IMG/VR virus record: IMGVR_UViG_3300031994_000035
Coordinates: 32,001-96,000 of that record
DNA: 64,000 nucleotides
Origin: a virus
Lineage: Duplodnaviria; Caudoviricetes
Strand: one strand, 5' to 3'
The notes under the pieces were generated by a model, which was not told where the DNA came from, made no database searches, and saw only the letters and a list, made by a program, of their open reading frames with translations. Shown piece by piece: positions 5,701 to 38,953 of this stretch (position 1 is the stretch's first letter; each line of letters starts with the position of its first letter). The translations under genes were made by a program, and so were the position numbers.

Positions 5701-7374
5701 TTAATACACCTGAGGAGCTTTTTCAACATCCATTACATTATCAGCAAGTAAAAGCAGTTGTGAATCCTTTACTACATACTGTTCTATAAGCAACATCAAA
5801 TCTTCTACCTTAACCATTTTATTCCAAATCCTCAAATTGGTAAGCTGTCCGTTAAATTTCTGAATGCTTACTGTCGCATCCTTCATTTCATATTGTGAAA
5901 TATTGGCTGACTTAATTGACTTGAATACAAGAACATTATTCATAGCATTAAGTTTCTGTAGTTCATACAAACATACTTGCGACATCATGTTTCTCTGCAT
6001 ATATACCACAGCATACCAAGTATTTTCAGAAATATTTTGAAAACTGTTTGTTTTTCCATTTATTGAAGTCACTATTTTTGAATTGGATATTGACAGCTTA
6101 AATGTTTTTTCATTATTTGAAATTTTCAAAATATCTTTTGTATTCGTATCACTTACTTTGAACAGCAAAGAAATCATTCTGTCATTTTCAATGCTTGAAA
6201 AATCTATCAGGTCATTGTATACAACGGAATCTTGATTTTTAGAATCTGTCAGGTCATAATGATTTCTTGATATTATAGCCATCTTATCACGTAAGTCATA
6301 CTTTACAATCTTGACATATTTGTCAACCGATTTTCTTAAATCATCAAATGAATAAGGTGTTTGTACTGATACCTGTTCCTGTATCGTATGATTTGCTTTT
6401 TCCATTTCGATACCGGCACCGCCATCTTTTTCATATTCTTCTTCTATACCTGTAATTACATCCAATGTGTCTTCAAGCAGCGATTCTCCGTCATCAGTTT
6501 TGTCATACTGCCTTTCTGCACGTTTTTCAAATTGTTTTAATGATATAATCCAAAATGTCGATAGTTCTTCATGCTTCGTATCATCAATTACAGAATTTAT
6601 CTCATACATATTATGAAACATTGTATTGACATAAATGTAGTCGCCAACATCAGGATGGGACTTTGGTCCAAATATTTCCCTAAAATGTTTTTTAAGAATA
6701 TGTACAGTAAACATTGTAGGATAATCCATCATTAAAGGATTAAAACTTATATCTGTAGACGGCAATGTTTGATTTGGAAACATAATCTTTACACACTTTT
6801 CTGAAACAACATTTATAAGACTGTATTCATTAAGTATGTAATCTGATGATCTTTTATCAGGGCTTGTCTTGAAGTATTTTACATCGACACCCATTGAATT
6901 GTTGATTATGTCATTAAGCTCAGTAGTTATTTTAGATGCAGCTTTTACAGAATCATATGGTGAAAACGGTTTTGACTGAGAAGCATCATTTTCATTACCT
7001 TTTAATATGATTGAATTATCCTGACAAGCTCCGCTACAAACTCCAGTACTTGCAGCTCTTGCCTCTATTTTACTAAGTATGCAATTATCGTTACTGTCAT
7101 TTGATTCCTTCATTTGAACAGTCTGAATTTCTACATTGAACTCCGTCTGTTCTGATTCCTCACTTTCGCTCTGCTCGTCAATTGCAAGACGTAAATAAAG
7201 TTTTCTATTTTTAGGGTATGCGAATTTTACCAAATTTTTATGGCTGACAGCAAGCCATTCAGACCAAAGTATTTCATCTTCTGATATAGAAAAATAAACT
7301 GTATTACTGTAATCAGTAATTATTTTATAGATACCGGCAACAGATTCAAATGTTTGTTCAAAGACAATTTCCAT
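5701..7374 (-). CDS. Putative neck/head-closure protein (T4 gp14-like core) with extra domains
   Basis: F..IFG...PDVGDYIY...MYEINSV motif like gp14; C-terminal beta-sandwich-like region. Confidence 0.55.
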   Translation of the reverse strand: MEIVFEQTFESVAGIYKIITDYSNTVYFSISEDEILWSEWLAVSHKNLVKFAYPKNRKLYLRLAIDEQSESEESEQTEFNVEIQTVQMKESNDSNDNCILSKIEARAASTGVCSGACQDNSIILKGNENDASQSKPFSPYDSVKAASKITTELNDIINNSMGVDVKYFKTSPDKRSSDYILNEYSLINVVSEKCVKIMFPNQTLPSTDISFNPLMMDYPTMFTVHILKKHFREIFGPKSHPDVGDYIYVNTMFHNMYEINSVIDDTKHEELSTFWIISLKQFEKRAERQYDKTDDGESLLEDTLDVITGIEEEYEKDGGAGIEMEKANHTIQEQVSVQTPYSFDDLRKSVDKYVKIVKYDLRDKMAIISRNHYDLTDSKNQDSVVYNDLIDFSSIENDRMISLLFKVSDTNTKDILKISNNEKTFKLSISNSKIVTSINGKTNSFQNISENTWYAVVYMQRNMMSQVCLYELQKLNAMNNVLVFKSIKSANISQYEMKDATVSIQKFNGQLTNLRIWNKMVKVEDLMLLIEQYVVKDSQLLLLADNVMDVEKAPQVY

Positions 7375-31893: not shown

Positions 31894-32388
31894 ATGGAAA
31901 ATTTTAAGACATTCAAAGAATTCAACTTTGACAAAAATGGATACACGGACCTTACAGGTGACAAACAAGAAATAAAGGATTTTCTTATAAAAAACAAAGA
32001 CTCTCTTCCTGTAAAGGCTGAAATAATGGCAAATGCAACAGAATCAGATACAAAGCTTGCAATGCTCTATAACATCTACGGTCTTGTAGACGACTTCGAA
32101 ATTATAGGTGACGACTTGTATATCCTGTTCTATCCTGTATATTTCACATACTACAAATATCATTTTACAAGACCTCTGATACTGAAACATTCCGAGACCG
32201 GGAAAAATCTACGTTTCGACAAAATGTTTTCATTCATAGTACCATACCTGTCAGACCTGCTTACTGGTGCTTTGATGAACGAAGGCTTTTCAAAAGACAA
32301 GGCCATAGAGTGGATGAATAAATCTACCAACAAGGAATACTTTAAAAAAATGACTGGTAGACAAACAGTGAATCCATATGAAAAGTAA
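31894..32388 (+). CDS. Hypothetical protein with MENFKTFKEF N-terminus
   Basis: Shared N-terminal motif. Confidence 0.65.
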   Translation: MENFKTFKEFNFDKNGYTDLTGDKQEIKDFLIKNKDSLPVKAEIMANATESDTKLAMLYNIYGLVDDFEIIGDDLYILFYPVYFTYYKYHFTRPLILKHSETGKNLRFDKMFSFIVPYLSDLLTGALMNEGFSKDKAIEWMNKSTNKEYFKKMTGRQTVNPYEK

Positions 32389-32544
32389 AAAGAAAAATTT
32401 GAAAAGTTTCGTAATATAGTTATTAAATGTTGTTTATTTAATTAAACTATAAAGTCAATAACTTGAAAAGATTTGACAGGAGTTCGAGTTCAAACTATAC
32501 TCCAATAAGTACATTGAAATAATGATAATTTTATACAGCTTGAC

Positions 32545-33188
32545 GGTCTGAAACCTAAGTTTAAATAATTTACTGGAAGAACGCCTGCTTTGTAAAGATG
32601 TAGATTGCAATAATTCAATCGTCTGATAAGTAGGATATTACAGCATCAAGTTGTATTTTAGAAATAATTTTGTGTGCATAGGCGAGAAATCCCTATGTAG
32701 AATCTCCTAAATTCGGTGGAAATCCTTATCCTGATATAGAATCCTAAAACGGTTATGGATATTTTCTATAAAGAGTAGTCGGGAAGAAAGCACTAACTAA
32801 TAATGTGTAAGGACTATACCGAGCGAAAATGAGATAAATACGATGCCAATAGGAGCATAGAAGTAGTATTACTGTTACGCAATATACAGAATCTTATAAT
32901 CGTGTAGACTGAAAGGGAGATACATAAAGTTGGAATTGAGATTTAAGCACCTTTGATGGAGAGGGACGTGAAATGATACTCAGCCTATATGGAATAAGTC
33001 ACGTTGAAATAGCTAAAATATATCTCTACTTGCAAGAATTTCAATATGGTAATATCAGTCAAAACCACAACAAACAATAAGGTTGAAAATCCGAGATTGT
33101 GTAAATCGAAAATGTAATTACTTGTCATTAAGTCTTGTAATGAATTGTTTGTCTATGGTAACATAGTGTGGTAGGGTTTCACAGACCC
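32545..33188 (+). ncRNA. Free-standing group I ribozyme-like RNA
   Basis: P2 32675-32699; P3 ATCTCCT/GGGAGAT; P4 TTCGGT/ACCGAG; P5 TCCTTA/TAAGGA; P7 GACTG(32907)/CAGTC(33056); P9.0 ACCACA/TGTGGT; GTAA tetraloop hairpin 33153-33166; closing stem 32545-32556/33173-33187. Confidence 0.8.
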
Positions 33189-33257
33189 ATTTTAAAACAG
33201 TACATTAAAATTTTATGATTTATAAATTCTGAGATGTAGAAGTTAGAATAAACAGAC

Positions 33258-34154
33258 ATGAAAGTAAAAACAAGAAAATTTCCAGAATGTAATTACAATG
33301 CGACATGGATTGACGGTAAAACATTTCGAATGGGAGATGGTTTTGCTAAAGAATTACCAGCAGACAAATCTGAATTTTATGACATTGCCCTTGGCACAAT
33401 GTGTAACCTAAATTGTCCGTTTTGTTATGCAGAAGCATCAAACAACGGTAAATTCTATGATGATATTTGTCAAAAGGCCGAATTGTTTTTTGGTAACATG
33501 TCAGAAAACGACAAGCCGTTTCAGGTGGCAATAGGAAGTTTGGGTGAACCGACAATACATCCGGATTTTATCAATTTTCTAAAAACAATTGCAAAATTTG
33601 ATATTGTTCCTAATTACACAACAAACGGAATAACATTAACAACAGAAAACGATTTCCGTGACGAATTGTTAAGTGTTACAGATAAATTATGTGGCGGTGT
33701 TGCCATAAGTACAAACGAATGGAATACAAAGATTCAAGAAACGTGGAGAAAGGCAGTAGAAAACTTATCATACTTTACAAAGACAAAGATAAATTTACAC
33801 TATGTTGTTTCAGATGAGAACTCTGTTGTTAGGTTTAAAGAAATTTATGACGAATATAAAGATAGAATCTTTTATTTTGTATTACTGCCAATGATGGATT
33901 CCGGACGTTGTACACAACGGTATAGCGAGAGCGCTTTTAAAAAATTGGAAACTATGTGGAATGATTTCGATGTTTCAAAAATATCATTTGGTGCTCATTT
34001 TTATCCATTATTGAAAGAAAGCAAAATAATTAATTGTTCATTGTACGAACCTGAATCATTTAGTAAAAATTTGATTCTTGACAATCCAATAACGATTACA
34101 AGAAGTAGTTTTGATTTAACAGTTTTAAAAACAATAGAATATGAAAAGAAATAA
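33258..34154 (+). CDS. Radical SAM enzyme
   Basis: CNLNCPFCY (CxxxCxxC), GEPT.HP, NYTTNG. Confidence 0.92.
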   Translation: MKVKTRKFPECNYNATWIDGKTFRMGDGFAKELPADKSEFYDIALGTMCNLNCPFCYAEASNNGKFYDDICQKAELFFGNMSENDKPFQVAIGSLGEPTIHPDFINFLKTIAKFDIVPNYTTNGITLTTENDFRDELLSVTDKLCGGVAISTNEWNTKIQETWRKAVENLSYFTKTKINLHYVVSDENSVVRFKEIYDEYKDRIFYFVLLPMMDSGRCTQRYSESAFKKLETMWNDFDVSKISFGAHFYPLLKESKIINCSLYEPESFSKNLILDNPITITRSSFDLTVLKTIEYEKK

Positions 34155-34734
34155 AATTTTATTCACGTTTAAAATTCAGAGTTTTTCTGATGTTATTACA
34201 AACAGTTCAAGCGAATTGTTTGTATTTGACGACAAAGGAGATGTAGAAAAAGTAAAAGAAATCCTTGATGGTCTTTATCCTGATTGGAGAAGCGAATATG
34301 AAGAGCCTGTCTTATTGAAAGATGCGGATGATGCTTCTGTTGAGTTATATGCTGAATATCTATTGCCAAGGGGCTGGGATTACGACTATCGTGGAGAAAC
34401 AACAGAAGAATGCAGAAATCTTCTTCGTCAAGATATTAAACATTTCTTTAATGAAGACGCAAAAAGATTTTATCCAAATATTGATACTTGGGACCCGAAA
34501 TATAATTGGAGTAATGATAAAAAGTTTAAAAATAAATTATACGAAGATTTAACAAGAGAAGAAAGGAGTGAAATATGGAGTAAACACGAACTCGAGTGTG
34601 ATTATGATGAAGTTGTAAAATACTTAAAAGATAATAGACAAAATGAAGTATTATTATTTTCATTAGGTGATAATCCTGATTGGGATATGCAGAAAAAACT
34701 TCAAACAGTTGCTAACCGCTATCATTTAGGTTAA
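34141..34734 (+). CDS. TNSSS-motif protein 1
   Basis: IQSFSDVITNSSSELF near N-terminus; overlaps the radical SAM stop. Confidence 0.75.
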   Translation: MKRNKILFTFKIQSFSDVITNSSSELFVFDDKGDVEKVKEILDGLYPDWRSEYEEPVLLKDADDASVELYAEYLLPRGWDYDYRGETTEECRNLLRQDIKHFFNEDAKRFYPNIDTWDPKYNWSNDKKFKNKLYEDLTREERSEIWSKHELECDYDEVVKYLKDNRQNEVLLFSLGDNPDWDMQKKLQTVANRYHLG

Positions 34735-34750
34735 AATTTTAATATTAAAA

Positions 34751-35125
34751 ATGAAAAAGAGATTTATTATACAAATTCAGAGTTTTTCTGATGTTATTAC
34801 AAACAGTTCAAGTGAGTTGTTTGCTGTTGGAGATGTAAACAAAACAGCAAAAGAAATAAAAAAATTGCTTATACAAAAGTTTAAAGAATCAGGCGATACG
34901 TGTAGTGGCATGGAAGGATACATAGAAGTTACTCCATATGATGCACCTGATGATATTAATGATTTTGTAATTACAAGTGATAATCTTAAATATGCACGTT
35001 ATCTTAAAACTTGGAAGAAACTAAATATACCACAAAAAGGTTTTTTCATTGATATAGATAAGGGTTTATATAATACGATAGAGTTTATCAGAAATGAATT
35101 AAAAGGATATTTATTAGATTATTAA
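34751..35125 (+). CDS. TNSSS-motif protein 2
   Basis: Identical IQSFSDVITNSSSELF motif, unrelated remainder. Confidence 0.75.
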   Translation: MKKRFIIQIQSFSDVITNSSSELFAVGDVNKTAKEIKKLLIQKFKESGDTCSGMEGYIEVTPYDAPDDINDFVITSDNLKYARYLKTWKKLNIPQKGFFIDIDKGLYNTIEFIRNELKGYLLDY

Positions 35126-35206
35126 AAAGTATACTTGTAAAGTAAAAATGAAAAAGAGATTTATTTTACATCAACAAATTAATATTAACTTTAAAATTAA
35201 ATAATT

Positions 35207-36548
35207 ATGGAAATAGTTCCAAAATCCATAGAAATATGGAAATTGTTTATAATTTAACAATTACCGGGTGAACTACAACGCCCTCTATCCCATCAAAAAA
35301 GACTTTTGGGAATGCTTTTCTCATGATGTTATAGCTTCCGTTCACATCGGCATTTATTTTGTTTCCGTTTTCAGAAACAAACAAGCCTCGATGAACACGT
35401 TTTCCTTTATAAACATCATGCTTTCCAATTTCTTCCAAATCAAGGAAACTACATTTGGATGTGTAGCTTTCCTCGTTTGTAATTACTTTTATCCCCACCT
35501 TTTCGCATTTGTATGAAACCATCTCGACAAATCTACTGTGAGGTATTTGTATGAAGTTCTGGTTGTTTCTTGAACCGGCGTTGCAGTCTTGCTTCCATCC
35601 GTCGTTCTTTCCTATAACCAGAACAGATATGCTCTTGTCTTTTAAATCATTTACTATTCTCTTGCTTGCACGATGCAAGTAGTTGTCAACCTTATTATTC
35701 CTTTTGTTTGTAAGTCTTCTTGTCCTGTGTGAATGCTTTTTCTTATTGACTTTTTCTAATTTTGACTTATATTTTGCAAGTTCCTTGTTATAGAACTGGT
35801 TAATCGATTTCAACGGCTTTCCGTTTATAATTGTCGGCTGTTCTCCTGATGAATATGTTACTGTAGCAAGATTACTTACTCCTAAGTCTATTGCAGCTAT
35901 ATTCTTGTTGAATTTTACTTTTTCTACATCTTCAATGGTATATATTACTTCAATAACATACTGCTCCGTCTTAGGGACAATCCTTATGCAATTTATTGAT
36001 TTAAAGTTATTTATCTTCGTATAAAATTCTATATCTACTTTTGACAGTTTAATTTTATGTGACTTTTCAAAAACCTTCTTTGAAATCGTCTGGTTGTTGA
36101 ATGTTGCAACATACCTCCCATCTTCCTTATGTAAGAATTTCGGGAACTTGACGTTTTTGTTATCAATATTTTTTGAACGAAGCATTCCGAAAAAAGAATT
36201 GCAAGTTGCATGAACTGATCTTAAAGTCGCTTGCGCAACTTTTTGAGGAAGCTGTTTGAAGCATTCTTCATTTTTCATGAAGAAATATGAATCATTCAAA
36301 ATATCATATGTTTTACTTTCCTCGTATTCCTTACGTATCAGATACAATGTCCTGTTATATATGTTCTTTGAAGAAAAGCATAGTAAATCACATTCCTTAT
36401 ATAAGGGATGACTTCTTTTAATAATATGTCTTTCCACCAATTGCATTTCTGTATAATGATACGTTTACTATTTTATTTATATATTTTCAAAAATACTTGA
36501 TTTTTAATTTGTTAAATAAATAGAATTATTTCTATAAATTTTCTATAA
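35207..36548 (-). mobile_element. Non-autonomous TnpB-only element (IS607/IS1341-like); ends approximate
   Basis: tnpB without tnpA; ATRGAAAT repeats in inverted orientation at 35207-35243 and 36528-36548. Confidence 0.55.
35247..36446 (-). CDS. tnpB: TnpB RNA-guided endonuclease
   Basis: AAIDLGVSNL, EESYTSKCS, INADVNGSYNIMRK. Confidence 0.9.
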   Translation of the reverse strand: MQLVERHIIKRSHPLYKECDLLCFSSKNIYNRTLYLIRKEYEESKTYDILNDSYFFMKNEECFKQLPQKVAQATLRSVHATCNSFFGMLRSKNIDNKNVKFPKFLHKEDGRYVATFNNQTISKKVFEKSHKIKLSKVDIEFYTKINNFKSINCIRIVPKTEQYVIEVIYTIEDVEKVKFNKNIAAIDLGVSNLATVTYSSGEQPTIINGKPLKSINQFYNKELAKYKSKLEKVNKKKHSHRTRRLTNKRNNKVDNYLHRASKRIVNDLKDKSISVLVIGKNDGWKQDCNAGSRNNQNFIQIPHSRFVEMVSYKCEKVGIKVITNEESYTSKCSFLDLEEIGKHDVYKGKRVHRGLFVSENGNKINADVNGSYNIMRKAFPKVFFDGIEGVVVHPVIVKL

Positions 36549-36689
36549 TGTTATATAAAATATATGAAGTTTAACAATACAATTATTATATTGTTGTTTA
36601 TTATTTTAAGATTACAATTTAATATTACAGATATGGCCCTAAGAAAAATAACGGACAGAAGGAATGTACAATTTTTAAATAACTGAACT

Positions 36690-37064
36690 ATGACAAACGA
36701 AGAAAGACAAATATTGCTAAAAGACCTTTGTATGCGGTTACCATATAAGGTCAAGGTACTTGACGATATGGGAAGACTGTATGAATTACATATAGGTGAC
36801 TCATATATTATAGATTTATTCTATGGAAACGGAGGTTATATAGAGCCACCAGTAAAGCCATACCTCCGTCCCTTGTCGTCAATAACGCCTGAAGAGAGAA
36901 AAGAATATCATCGACTTTGTGATGTGGAAGAAGGCCCTTTTTATGAGAGATTCTTTCACGATACGATTGCCTCAATTGAATATCTTACTTCAAAGCATTT
37001 CGACTATCGAGGTCTGATAGAGAAAGGACTTGCTATTGAAGCATCCGACGATATGTATAACTAA
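36690..37064 (+). CDS. Paralog family A
   Basis: LLKDLC.RLPY, KPYLRP, HFDYRGLIEKGLA. Confidence 0.8.
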   Translation: MTNEERQILLKDLCMRLPYKVKVLDDMGRLYELHIGDSYIIDLFYGNGGYIEPPVKPYLRPLSSITPEERKEYHRLCDVEEGPFYERFFHDTIASIEYLTSKHFDYRGLIEKGLAIEASDDMYN

Positions 37065-37075
37065 AATTTATAACT

Positions 37076-37558
37076 ATGACACAAGAAGAAAAACAACTTT
37101 TACTTAAAGACCTTTGTGCAAGGTTGCCATATGGTGTAATAGTAAGGCACTCTGATTGTATAGTAGATGATGAAGGTAATGAAACTGGAAAATTCTATCA
37201 TACAAAGGGTTATTTATGTGATGTTTGTACAGAGGATGATATGACCACAACCATTATAGAAAGTGAAGGTGAGGATGAAGGATACAATCATATTTGTTCC
37301 TTAGAGTGGACTGTTCCATATCTCCGTCCAATGGATTCAATGACAGTTGAGGAAATATGTAAAATAGAGGCAATTATTGGAAATGGTTTTAAATATGGAG
37401 ACGGTGAATTGACGGTATGCGGCGAAGATGTTATTAAGCTGTCATTTCCAAAAATACACGAACTCATGGAGTTTTTATATCAACACCATATTGATGTTAA
37501 TTGTCTTATTGAAAAAGGTCTCGCTATTGAGGTGGAAAAAGGAATGTATAATTTTTAA
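37076..37558 (+). CDS. Paralog family A
   Basis: MTQEEKQLLLKDLCARLPYGV, PYLRP, LIEKGLAIE. Confidence 0.8.
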   Translation: MTQEEKQLLLKDLCARLPYGVIVRHSDCIVDDEGNETGKFYHTKGYLCDVCTEDDMTTTIIESEGEDEGYNHICSLEWTVPYLRPMDSMTVEEICKIEAIIGNGFKYGDGELTVCGEDVIKLSFPKIHELMEFLYQHHIDVNCLIEKGLAIEVEKGMYNF

Positions 37559-38532: not shown

Positions 38533-38668
38533 CATGCAATTGAAAAATTCACAGGCTGGAAACTAGGAACAAGGCCTTTTCAATACGATTTGTTCATGGA
38601 AGTTTCTATCATATTGTTTATTATTTTAAGATTACAATTAAAATTTAAGTTTTTTAATTTTTACAGAT

Positions 38669-38953
38669 ATGCCCCTAAGAAAAATAACGGAAAAAGAATG
38701 TAAGGAACTTTTGTCGCTCGCTGATGACTATTTGGTAAAAAAGATTTCAGATGAAAACTATGACCAGTCTTTCGCTGCGTTCCTTAACAACAATTTCACA
38801 GCCACAGATTTCATATTCACACGCGATTCAGGAGAGAAACTTCTTGACATACTGTTGGAGACTGCCGAAAAATATTCAGATTCATTTATTGACGATCCTT
38901 CTGAAGAAATCAAATTTGTGACAAACGTCCTTAATGAGAATTACTTCATATAA
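38669..38953 (+). CDS. Hypothetical protein
   Basis: ORF after TTGTTTATTAT motif; its 5' region is duplicated at 36594-36670. Confidence 0.65.
   Translation: MPLRKITEKECKELLSLADDYLVKKISDENYDQSFAAFLNNNFTATDFIFTRDSGEKLLDILLETAEKYSDSFIDDPSEEIKFVTNVLNENYFI

Follow-up and report, generated by a model that had tools for sequence, protein, structure and literature searches.

A radical SAM gene and two genes sharing a peptide

The DNA analyzed here, called the window, is a stretch of 64,000 nucleotides (positions 32,001 to 96,000) of the tailed-phage record IMGVR_UViG_3300031994_000035 (Duplodnaviria; Caudoviricetes) of IMG/VR. From the open reading frame (ORF) listing and the sequence, we recognized in it a cassette of three co-directional genes, i.e., a gene for a radical S-adenosylmethionine (SAM) enzyme, ORF2, and ORF3. 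The radical SAM gene (33258-34154, plus strand) encodes a protein of 298 residues with a single [4Fe-4S] motif and without the cysteines of SPASM or twitch domains. Its cluster-binding motif CX3CX2C (C49, C53, and C56), read from the sequence, lies at 33402-33425 on the plus strand. ORF2 (34141-34734, plus strand) encodes an acidic protein of 197 residues (isoelectric point (pI) 4.8) and ORF3 (34751-35125, plus strand) a protein of 124 residues. An earlier, sequence-only reading of this DNA had claimed that the radical SAM gene overlaps the next ORF. Indeed, the 3' end of the former and the 5' end of the latter share 14 nt (ATGAAAAGAAATAA), the ATG of ORF2 sitting 14 nt inside the radical SAM gene, and the cassette is translationally coupled.

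The products of ORF2 and ORF3 both carry the 16-residue peptide IQSFSDVITNSSSELF, hereafter the tag, at residues 12-27 in ORF2 (34174-34221, plus strand) and at residues 9-24 in ORF3 (34775-34822, plus strand). At the DNA level, 46 of the 48 nucleotides match and both differences are synonymous, 14 of the 16 codons being identical. The remainder of the two proteins is unrelated: the BLASTP alignment is confined to residues 8-41 of ORF2 and 5-36 of ORF3, and once the tag was removed, hhalign gave a probability of 0.9% for the ORF2 class against the ORF3 class. Hence, the earlier observation of an identical peptide, encoded by nearly identical DNA in two otherwise unrelated proteins, was correct. 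A six-frame scan of the window and of the 123.8-kb contig found the motif at no further site. A codon identity of at least 0.8 was reached by only 5 of 340 within-locus tag pairs. Because it is such an outlier, the ORF2/ORF3 pair looks like the product of a recent conversion or duplication in this lineage. As for chance sharing of the tag, the sequence counts exclude it, since 206 non-redundant proteins from 79 viral loci open with the tag and 3171 cluster representatives are matched by a tag profile.

Linkage, anatomy, and carriers of the tag

The full-length ORF2 family comprises 33 homologues (30-86% identity), is unnamed, and has no Pfam domain. The scan with this family delivered 79 IMG/VR loci. 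Their contigs mostly measure 90-190 kb, the longest reaching 508 kb, and each locus contains 1-6 tandem, co-directional genes opening with the tag. In 77 of these 79 loci, a radical SAM homologue (35-91% identical, tblastn) is found within 6 kb, the two loci lacking a match being L016, a 2-kb locus, and L079. The match is partial and at the locus edge in L028, and in L018 the enzyme is reduced to its last ~60 residues. The converse scan, starting from the radical SAM enzyme, gave 80 loci, all 80 with the tag (1-6 tagged genes). Thus, the co-occurrence of motif and enzyme, by which the sequence-only reading had suggested its proposal be judged, is found in both directions. Moreover, in five phage genomes (97-100% complete, 170-508 kb), all profile matches with E < 1e-10 fall in one cluster adjoining the radical SAM gene, and the sole further match is marginal (E 0.009). 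The surroundings of the cassette are unrelated between the window and loci L001, L022, L024, L066, and L074, the radical SAM gene and the tagged family being the only genes in common.

The module is essentially phage-only. The tag family was found in 185,579 prokaryote species genomes on 5 short contigs of metagenome-assembled genomes only. With a 42-position tag profile, 3171 cluster representatives (clusters at 50% identity) were retrieved at E ≤ 0.001, 425 of them at E ≤ 1e-10. Searching 50,697 cultured-phage records by tblastn with ORF2 and the radical SAM enzyme yielded no real homologue, the enzyme giving merely two weak partial matches, and the ESM Atlas returned unnamed or generic viral clusters only. 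Our literature search found no paper containing "TNSSSE", and broader searches brought nothing relevant. We also found no natural fusion between the enzyme and a tagged protein, a search for longer homologues included; an apparent case in L018 was rejected, as it corresponds to a deletion (6231-6695) that brought a tagged gene up against the final ~60 codons of the radical SAM gene. One of the complete genomes carries a tagged pseudogene with an in-frame TGA (G001:C1:138381-138473).

A conserved N-terminal peptide on variable small proteins in tandem arrays could also be a sorting or processing signal, for instance a T4-style capsid-targeting sequence, a degron, or an export signal, the linkage to the radical SAM gene being incidental. 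The internal-protein loci of T4 present a resembling arrangement of tandem small proteins with an N-terminal peptide. However, the linkage is near-absolute in both directions across unrelated neighborhoods, and the cassette is not placed in a structural-gene module. The T4 capsid-targeting sequence, carried by proteins that are present in virions, ends in (L/I)-x-E and is cleaved by the prohead protease, whereas the phage tag has S-S-E and thus no such site at its Glu; nor does it have a hydrophobic signal helix. We regard such a signal as highly improbable.

The consensus of the tag over the 206 non-redundant proteins is h-x-h-[KPN]-[IV]-[QH]-S-h-[ST]-D-h-I-T-N-S-S-[ST]-E-h-[FY]. Invariance is complete (206/206) for T, N, S, and S. 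The search pattern, which fixed part of this consensus beforehand, did leave room for S in place of T and for T in place of the serines, but at the first two positions no protein made use of this. Of the 206 proteins, 203 have the Asp and 185 the Glu. The position of the tag is also constrained. Its Asp occupies residue 6-23 of the protein, and among the 150 best matches of the 3171, the tag stands within the first 20 residues in all but P0169, in which two tagged proteins are fused in frame and the second tag is therefore internal.

In these tags, the serines are encoded by AGY and TCN codons alike, and the synonymous-codon identity is 0.48 within loci versus 0.44 between loci. Thus, codons diverge within loci to the extent seen between loci, which places selection at the level of the peptide rather than at that of DNA or RNA. 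A DNA- or RNA-level element behind the conservation of the motif was rejected on this codon divergence, and an Rfam E-value search of 32500-37000 gave no match.

Some variable positions of the tag change in concert within a phage. Most phages have Q at position -4, the others H, D, or K. When paralogues of different classes from one phage are paired, 93.8% of 226 pairs are in agreement here, against 67.3 ± 3.2% after within-class shuffling among loci, and 93.8% is attained in none of 500 shuffles. The same concerted behavior is shown by positions -1 and +9. As codons are not homogenized, this pattern fits a co-adaptation of all tags to one shared partner. The columns of the radical SAM enzyme that track position -4 cluster at residues 27-30, 47, and 50, a signal which is confounded by phylogeny and to which we give no weight.

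Behind the tag, the proteins diverge. After tag removal, the tails form at least 12 classes, mostly without profile-profile (HH) similarity. The class ending in ...R-Y-H-L-G, to which ORF2 belongs, has exactly one copy in 83 of 101 distinct loci, never two, and provides the sole tagged protein of minimal loci. For these two reasons, it is the core partner, while the other classes, including that of ORF3, are accessories varying between phages. ORF3 has a close homologue in P0033, and its class is related to tail class 4 (hhalign probability 97%), which is present in 21 loci. The earlier picture of a motif grafted onto diverse cargo is right for the tails, which are unrelated in sequence, but has to be qualified for the ...HLG class, which is a constant partner. 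Tagged proteins are acidic (median pI 4.5, versus 6.1 for the other ORFs of the same loci) and 44-332 residues long, with a median of about 150. No significant match was obtained in Pfam, NCBIfam, or PHROGs for ORF2, ORF3, or ten representatives of other tail classes.

The AlphaFold2 model of ORF2, computed from a 47-sequence alignment, is confident (predicted local distance difference test (pLDDT) 89, predicted template modeling score 0.78) and presents a ferredoxin-like beta-alpha-beta-beta-alpha-beta core with a large helical insert. Most of the body exceeds a pLDDT of 90, whereas the tag region, residues 1-20, has a pLDDT of about 50 (52 and 49 in its 10-residue blocks). No secondary structure precedes residue 25, and ELFVF (residues 25-29) forms the first beta strand. 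The sequence-only reading would have been contradicted by a motif folding as part of a common domain; in this model, the tag is instead predicted to be an exposed, unpacked N-terminal arm on strand 1, and not a buried part of such a domain.

The composition of the tag may nevertheless suggest another function, that of a catalytic or ligand-binding loop in fast-evolving small enzymes or binders, which would act before or after the radical SAM enzyme in the same pathway and would be left untouched by it. Its D, T, N, S, S, S, and E residues are typical of metal or phosphate binding, it enters strand 1 of the ferredoxin-like fold, most paralogues present a strand-turn-helix after it, and S174, N178, and H195 are additional invariant residues of the ...HLG class. 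On the other hand, as the tails are mostly unrelated at the HH level, an identical active-site loop would be needed on different scaffolds; the tag is unpacked against the fold in the ORF2 model and always stands at a fixed short distance from the free N-terminus. Such a loop is, to us, an improbable explanation, though less so than a sorting signal.

The enzyme and a predicted modification of the tag

The radical SAM enzyme scores 35.5 bits against the Pfam family Radical_SAM (PF04055), for a cut-off of 29.5, and has no further Pfam match. The cluster loop reads CNLNCPFC (residues 49-56). Its three cysteines are invariant in 39 homologues, a few relatives having CX4CX2C instead, and the alignment of these homologues contains no conserved cysteine beyond this motif, so no SPASM or twitch motif. 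Before the cluster loop, R6, N12, Y13, T22, R24, E39, and D42 are invariant or near-invariant; of the five located in the N-terminal sheet, Y13, T22, and R24 are invariant, and R6 and N12 near-invariant. Further conserved positions are G93-x-x-G96-E97, P118-N-Y-T-T-N-G124, G147-V-A, H181, and P211...G216-R217.

In seven related phages, inserts of ~260 nt to 1.9 kb interrupt the radical SAM gene behind the conserved QIAIG (residue 93), most of them with an ORF for a GIY-YIG-type homing endonuclease (L004:7227-10060; L013:7835-9051; L017:7838-10132; L029:8576-11053; L033:1951-4126; L052:7189-9339; L061:7006-9466). In L004, the third cluster cysteine (C56) is additionally preceded, immediately, by an intein-like insert that ends in ...VHN. 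At Rfam gathering thresholds, no group I or group II intron was matched in five of the split loci. The presence of GIY-YIG inserts and of an intein at C56 in homologues identifies the enzyme as a conserved and important one.

The AlphaFold2 model of the enzyme (pLDDT 94.8) has the partial TIM barrel of the radical SAM superfamily, with a three-stranded sheet (residues 3-25) and additional strands (269-293). It has 166 PDB matches at E ≤ 0.001, and among the matches listed, all are radical SAM enzymes. The top Foldseek match is SuiB (E 6.6e-10), and the two best structural matches, SkfB and SuiB, are both maturases of RiPPs (ribosomally synthesized peptides with post-translational modifications). 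They are also the only ones, among the top structural matches, to cover the N-terminal 40 residues of the phage enzyme; the sheet at residues 3-25 lies within the ranges aligned to their N-terminal regions, the helices of the RiPP recognition element (RRE) are missing, and an RRE of the PqqD type was not detected. The support that a peptide-directed enzyme receives from the margin of SkfB and SuiB, which is largely due to this N-terminal region, is moderate, not decisive.

At the level of families, the curated NCBIfam models all remain far below their cut-offs (e.g., WgkB, 34 versus 650 bits; QueE, 17.7 versus 260), and the NCBIfam SPASM models align with the N-terminal core only. Homologues are labeled "MoaA/NifB/PqqE/SkfB family" by JGI. 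We tried several known radical SAM systems as identities. Viperin, QueE, and MoaA, which act on small molecules, were rejected because their family profile cut-offs are not reached. In glycyl-radical systems, activases such as PflA and NrdG act on clients, including the spare part GrcA/YfiD, at a Gly in an RVxG-type loop, whereas the tag has no Gly; this identity was rejected, NrdG2 (TIGR02495) scoring 18.1 bits for a cut-off of 131 and the ...HLG C-terminus being found in one class only. The formylglycine/sulfatase analogy drawn by the sequence-only reading had to be abandoned as well. Indeed, anSME/AtsB enzymes have two auxiliary clusters in a SPASM domain and clients with a (C/S)-x-P-x-R motif, neither of which exists in the phage module: there is no SPASM domain, and the tag consensus has no Pro or Arg at the required positions.

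We therefore considered a module made of a protein-directed radical SAM maturase and N-terminally tagged clients, in which the enzyme is predicted to modify the tag, a reading that we hold to be about as probable as not. The core of the earlier proposal, i.e., a radical SAM enzyme with tagged client proteins in phages, stands on the linkage, on the sequence-unrelated tagged proteins, and on the peptide maturases found as structural neighbors. With the linkage, the anatomy of the tag, its selection as a peptide, and the fold type of the enzyme established, we infer binding, modification, and a biological role as follows. The enzyme would bind the arm of its clients, probably as a strand paired with the conserved sheet of three strands at its own N-terminus, and the h-x-h-x-IQS strand preceding the invariant segment may contribute to recognition. 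The invariant T-N-S-S segment would thereby be placed beside SAM and the [4Fe-4S] cluster, SAM would be cleaved, and a hydrogen atom would be abstracted from a residue of the tag, leading to a covalent change that could be an epimerization, a cross-link, an oxidation, or a cleavage. TNSS(S/T)E would be the site of chemistry. The position of the cassette among replication genes suggests an early or middle expression.

Several observations weigh against this modification reading. Viperin-like nucleotide enzymes score just 2-4 Z units lower than the peptide maturases in structural comparison, and the phage enzyme has neither auxiliary clusters nor a full RRE domain, in contrast to its structural neighbors. 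The tag continues into beta strand 1 (ELFVF) and is hence not a fully separable leader. Finally, the concerted variation at position -4 could stem from patchy gene conversion or shared ancestry.

The tag may also merely dock exchangeable specificity or adaptor subunits onto an enzyme whose real substrate is a nucleotide, DNA, RNA, or a small molecule, as in a nucleic-acid modification made during replication. Linkage and concerted variation fit binding as well as modification, one constant partner class is present per locus, never two, and the cassette is located among replication genes, both in the window, with genes for a DNA polymerase, a helicase, and a ligase, and in relatives, with genes for a DnaB-like helicase, a Toprim primase, and a PD-(D/E)XK nuclease. 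However, a T-N-S-S invariance of 100% over thousands of divergent proteins would be unusual for a mere docking peptide. In addition, the enzyme has no match to thymidine-hypermodification enzymes in the phage records searched, nor to QueE, and no nucleotide-metabolism gene is common to the loci. Among the explanations that leave the tag unmodified, docking appears to us the most plausible, while still being unlikely.

Modification of the tag, which we continue to prefer, can be compared with several known systems. As in the pair of SuiB and its streptide precursor SuiA (PDB 5V1S/5V1T) and in SkfB (PDB 6EFN), an enzyme stands beside several genes with a common N-terminal recognition segment. 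Unlike these RiPP maturases, the phage enzyme has no SPASM or twitch cysteines and its module is essentially confined to phages; unlike RiPP precursors, which are short peptides, the clients are folded, acidic proteins of 100-250 residues; and unlike in a leader followed by a variable core, the presumed target is itself the invariant part. RiPP precursor identity was rejected for the clients on their full size range (44-332 residues) and on the confident fold of ORF2. The nearest printed description, which concerns a different module, is that of Kaur, Burroughs, Iyer and Aravind 2020 (PMC7159879), who reported peptide-processing rSAM-SPASM genes in VMAP/FtsH ternary conflict systems and predicted, by comparative genomics only, that the radical SAM enzyme modifies neighboring products with a short conserved motif. 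Both systems thus place a radical SAM gene beside genes whose products share such a motif. Contrary to the phage module, theirs has its conserved piece at the C-terminus (FxSxx and other types), an enzyme fused to SPASM or related to Memo-AMMECR1, and bacterial vWA-MoxR/STAND systems as context. What distinguishes the phage module from known systems is a minimal single-cluster enzyme, folded clients, one core client with variable accessory ones, and an essentially phage-confined distribution.

A bolder version, which we advance tentatively and with less assurance than modification as such, is that the T-N-S-S(S/T)-E arm would be the site of a novel radical-mediated modification, by which a single-cluster radical SAM enzyme would mature an exchangeable set of acidic early proteins, possibly effectors of host takeover or anti-defence, in a phage-wide system, represented by thousands of protein clusters, on the scale of formylglycine formation or glycyl-radical activation. 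If the enzyme does modify the tag, the module would represent a new post-translational chemistry on Ser/Thr/Asn-rich peptides by a minimal single-cluster enzyme, and a function could for the first time be approached for thousands of acidic proteins, now labeled "hypothetical", of large uncultured phages from gut, rumen, and environmental sources. As a simple sequence criterion, the tag allows clients of the enzyme to be located, and it could also serve as a portable modification tag.

Borders and surroundings of the cassette

The sequence-only reading had also mentioned a third, truncated start near 35144, but this site does not correspond to a third client. The sequence AAAAATGAAAAAGAGATTTATT at 35144-35165 (plus strand) is an exact 22-nt copy of 34747-34768, i.e., of the ribosome-binding region and first codons of ORF3, and the frame that it opens (35148-35204) stops after 18 codons. 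From 35161, it runs directly into the 3' half (35161-35218, plus strand) of an element of ~90 nt (consensus TTTTTCAAnATTTTGATCCAACTTTCAAAAAGTnGTATTATATTTACCTCAACAAATTAATATTAACATTAAAATTAAA), of which the 123.8-kb contig contains at least 10 copies, all immediately followed by an ATG, and which looks like a phage promoter followed by a conserved 5' untranslated region. The copy at 35161 has lost its upstream half. We conclude that 35144-35165 is a recombination remnant and not a third tagged gene.

On the minus strand, a gene for TnpB (35247-36446, 399 residues) adjoins this scar, outside the module. It is a TnpB-only gene of the IS200/IS605 type (OrfB), matching the RuvC-like domain OrfB_IS605 (E 3.1e-22) and the Cas12f1-like TNB zinc-finger domain (E 2.5e-12) in Pfam, both above cut-offs, and the transposase family phrog_506 in PHROGs (E 4e-45); no second copy of this TnpB element was found in the 123.8-kb contig. 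We rejected a third paralogue interrupted by TnpB, since no gene remainder exists to the right of the element and the junction is with the repeated promoter element. The closest relative, L001 (radical SAM enzyme 91% and ORF2 85% identical), has two tagged genes followed by an unrelated gene. With two clients only in L001, the supposed third start is not a transposon-split member of the family.

Some features lie further away. Directly upstream of the radical SAM gene, there is an ORF-poor gap of ~870 nt (32389-33257). Further copies of the ~90-nt element were observed in the window near 4323, 26252, and 30959, others being located elsewhere in the 123.8-kb contig. A 17-tRNA array, typical of large phages, follows a tmRNA-like gene (window positions 269-4242). 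To the right of TnpB, a repeated upstream element is seen near 37072, near 38614 (about 38590-38700), and at other sites of the contig. In the stretch 36594-37558, two neighboring paralogues (36690-37064 and 37076-37558) both open with MT(N/Q)EE(R/K)Q(I/L)LLKDLC.

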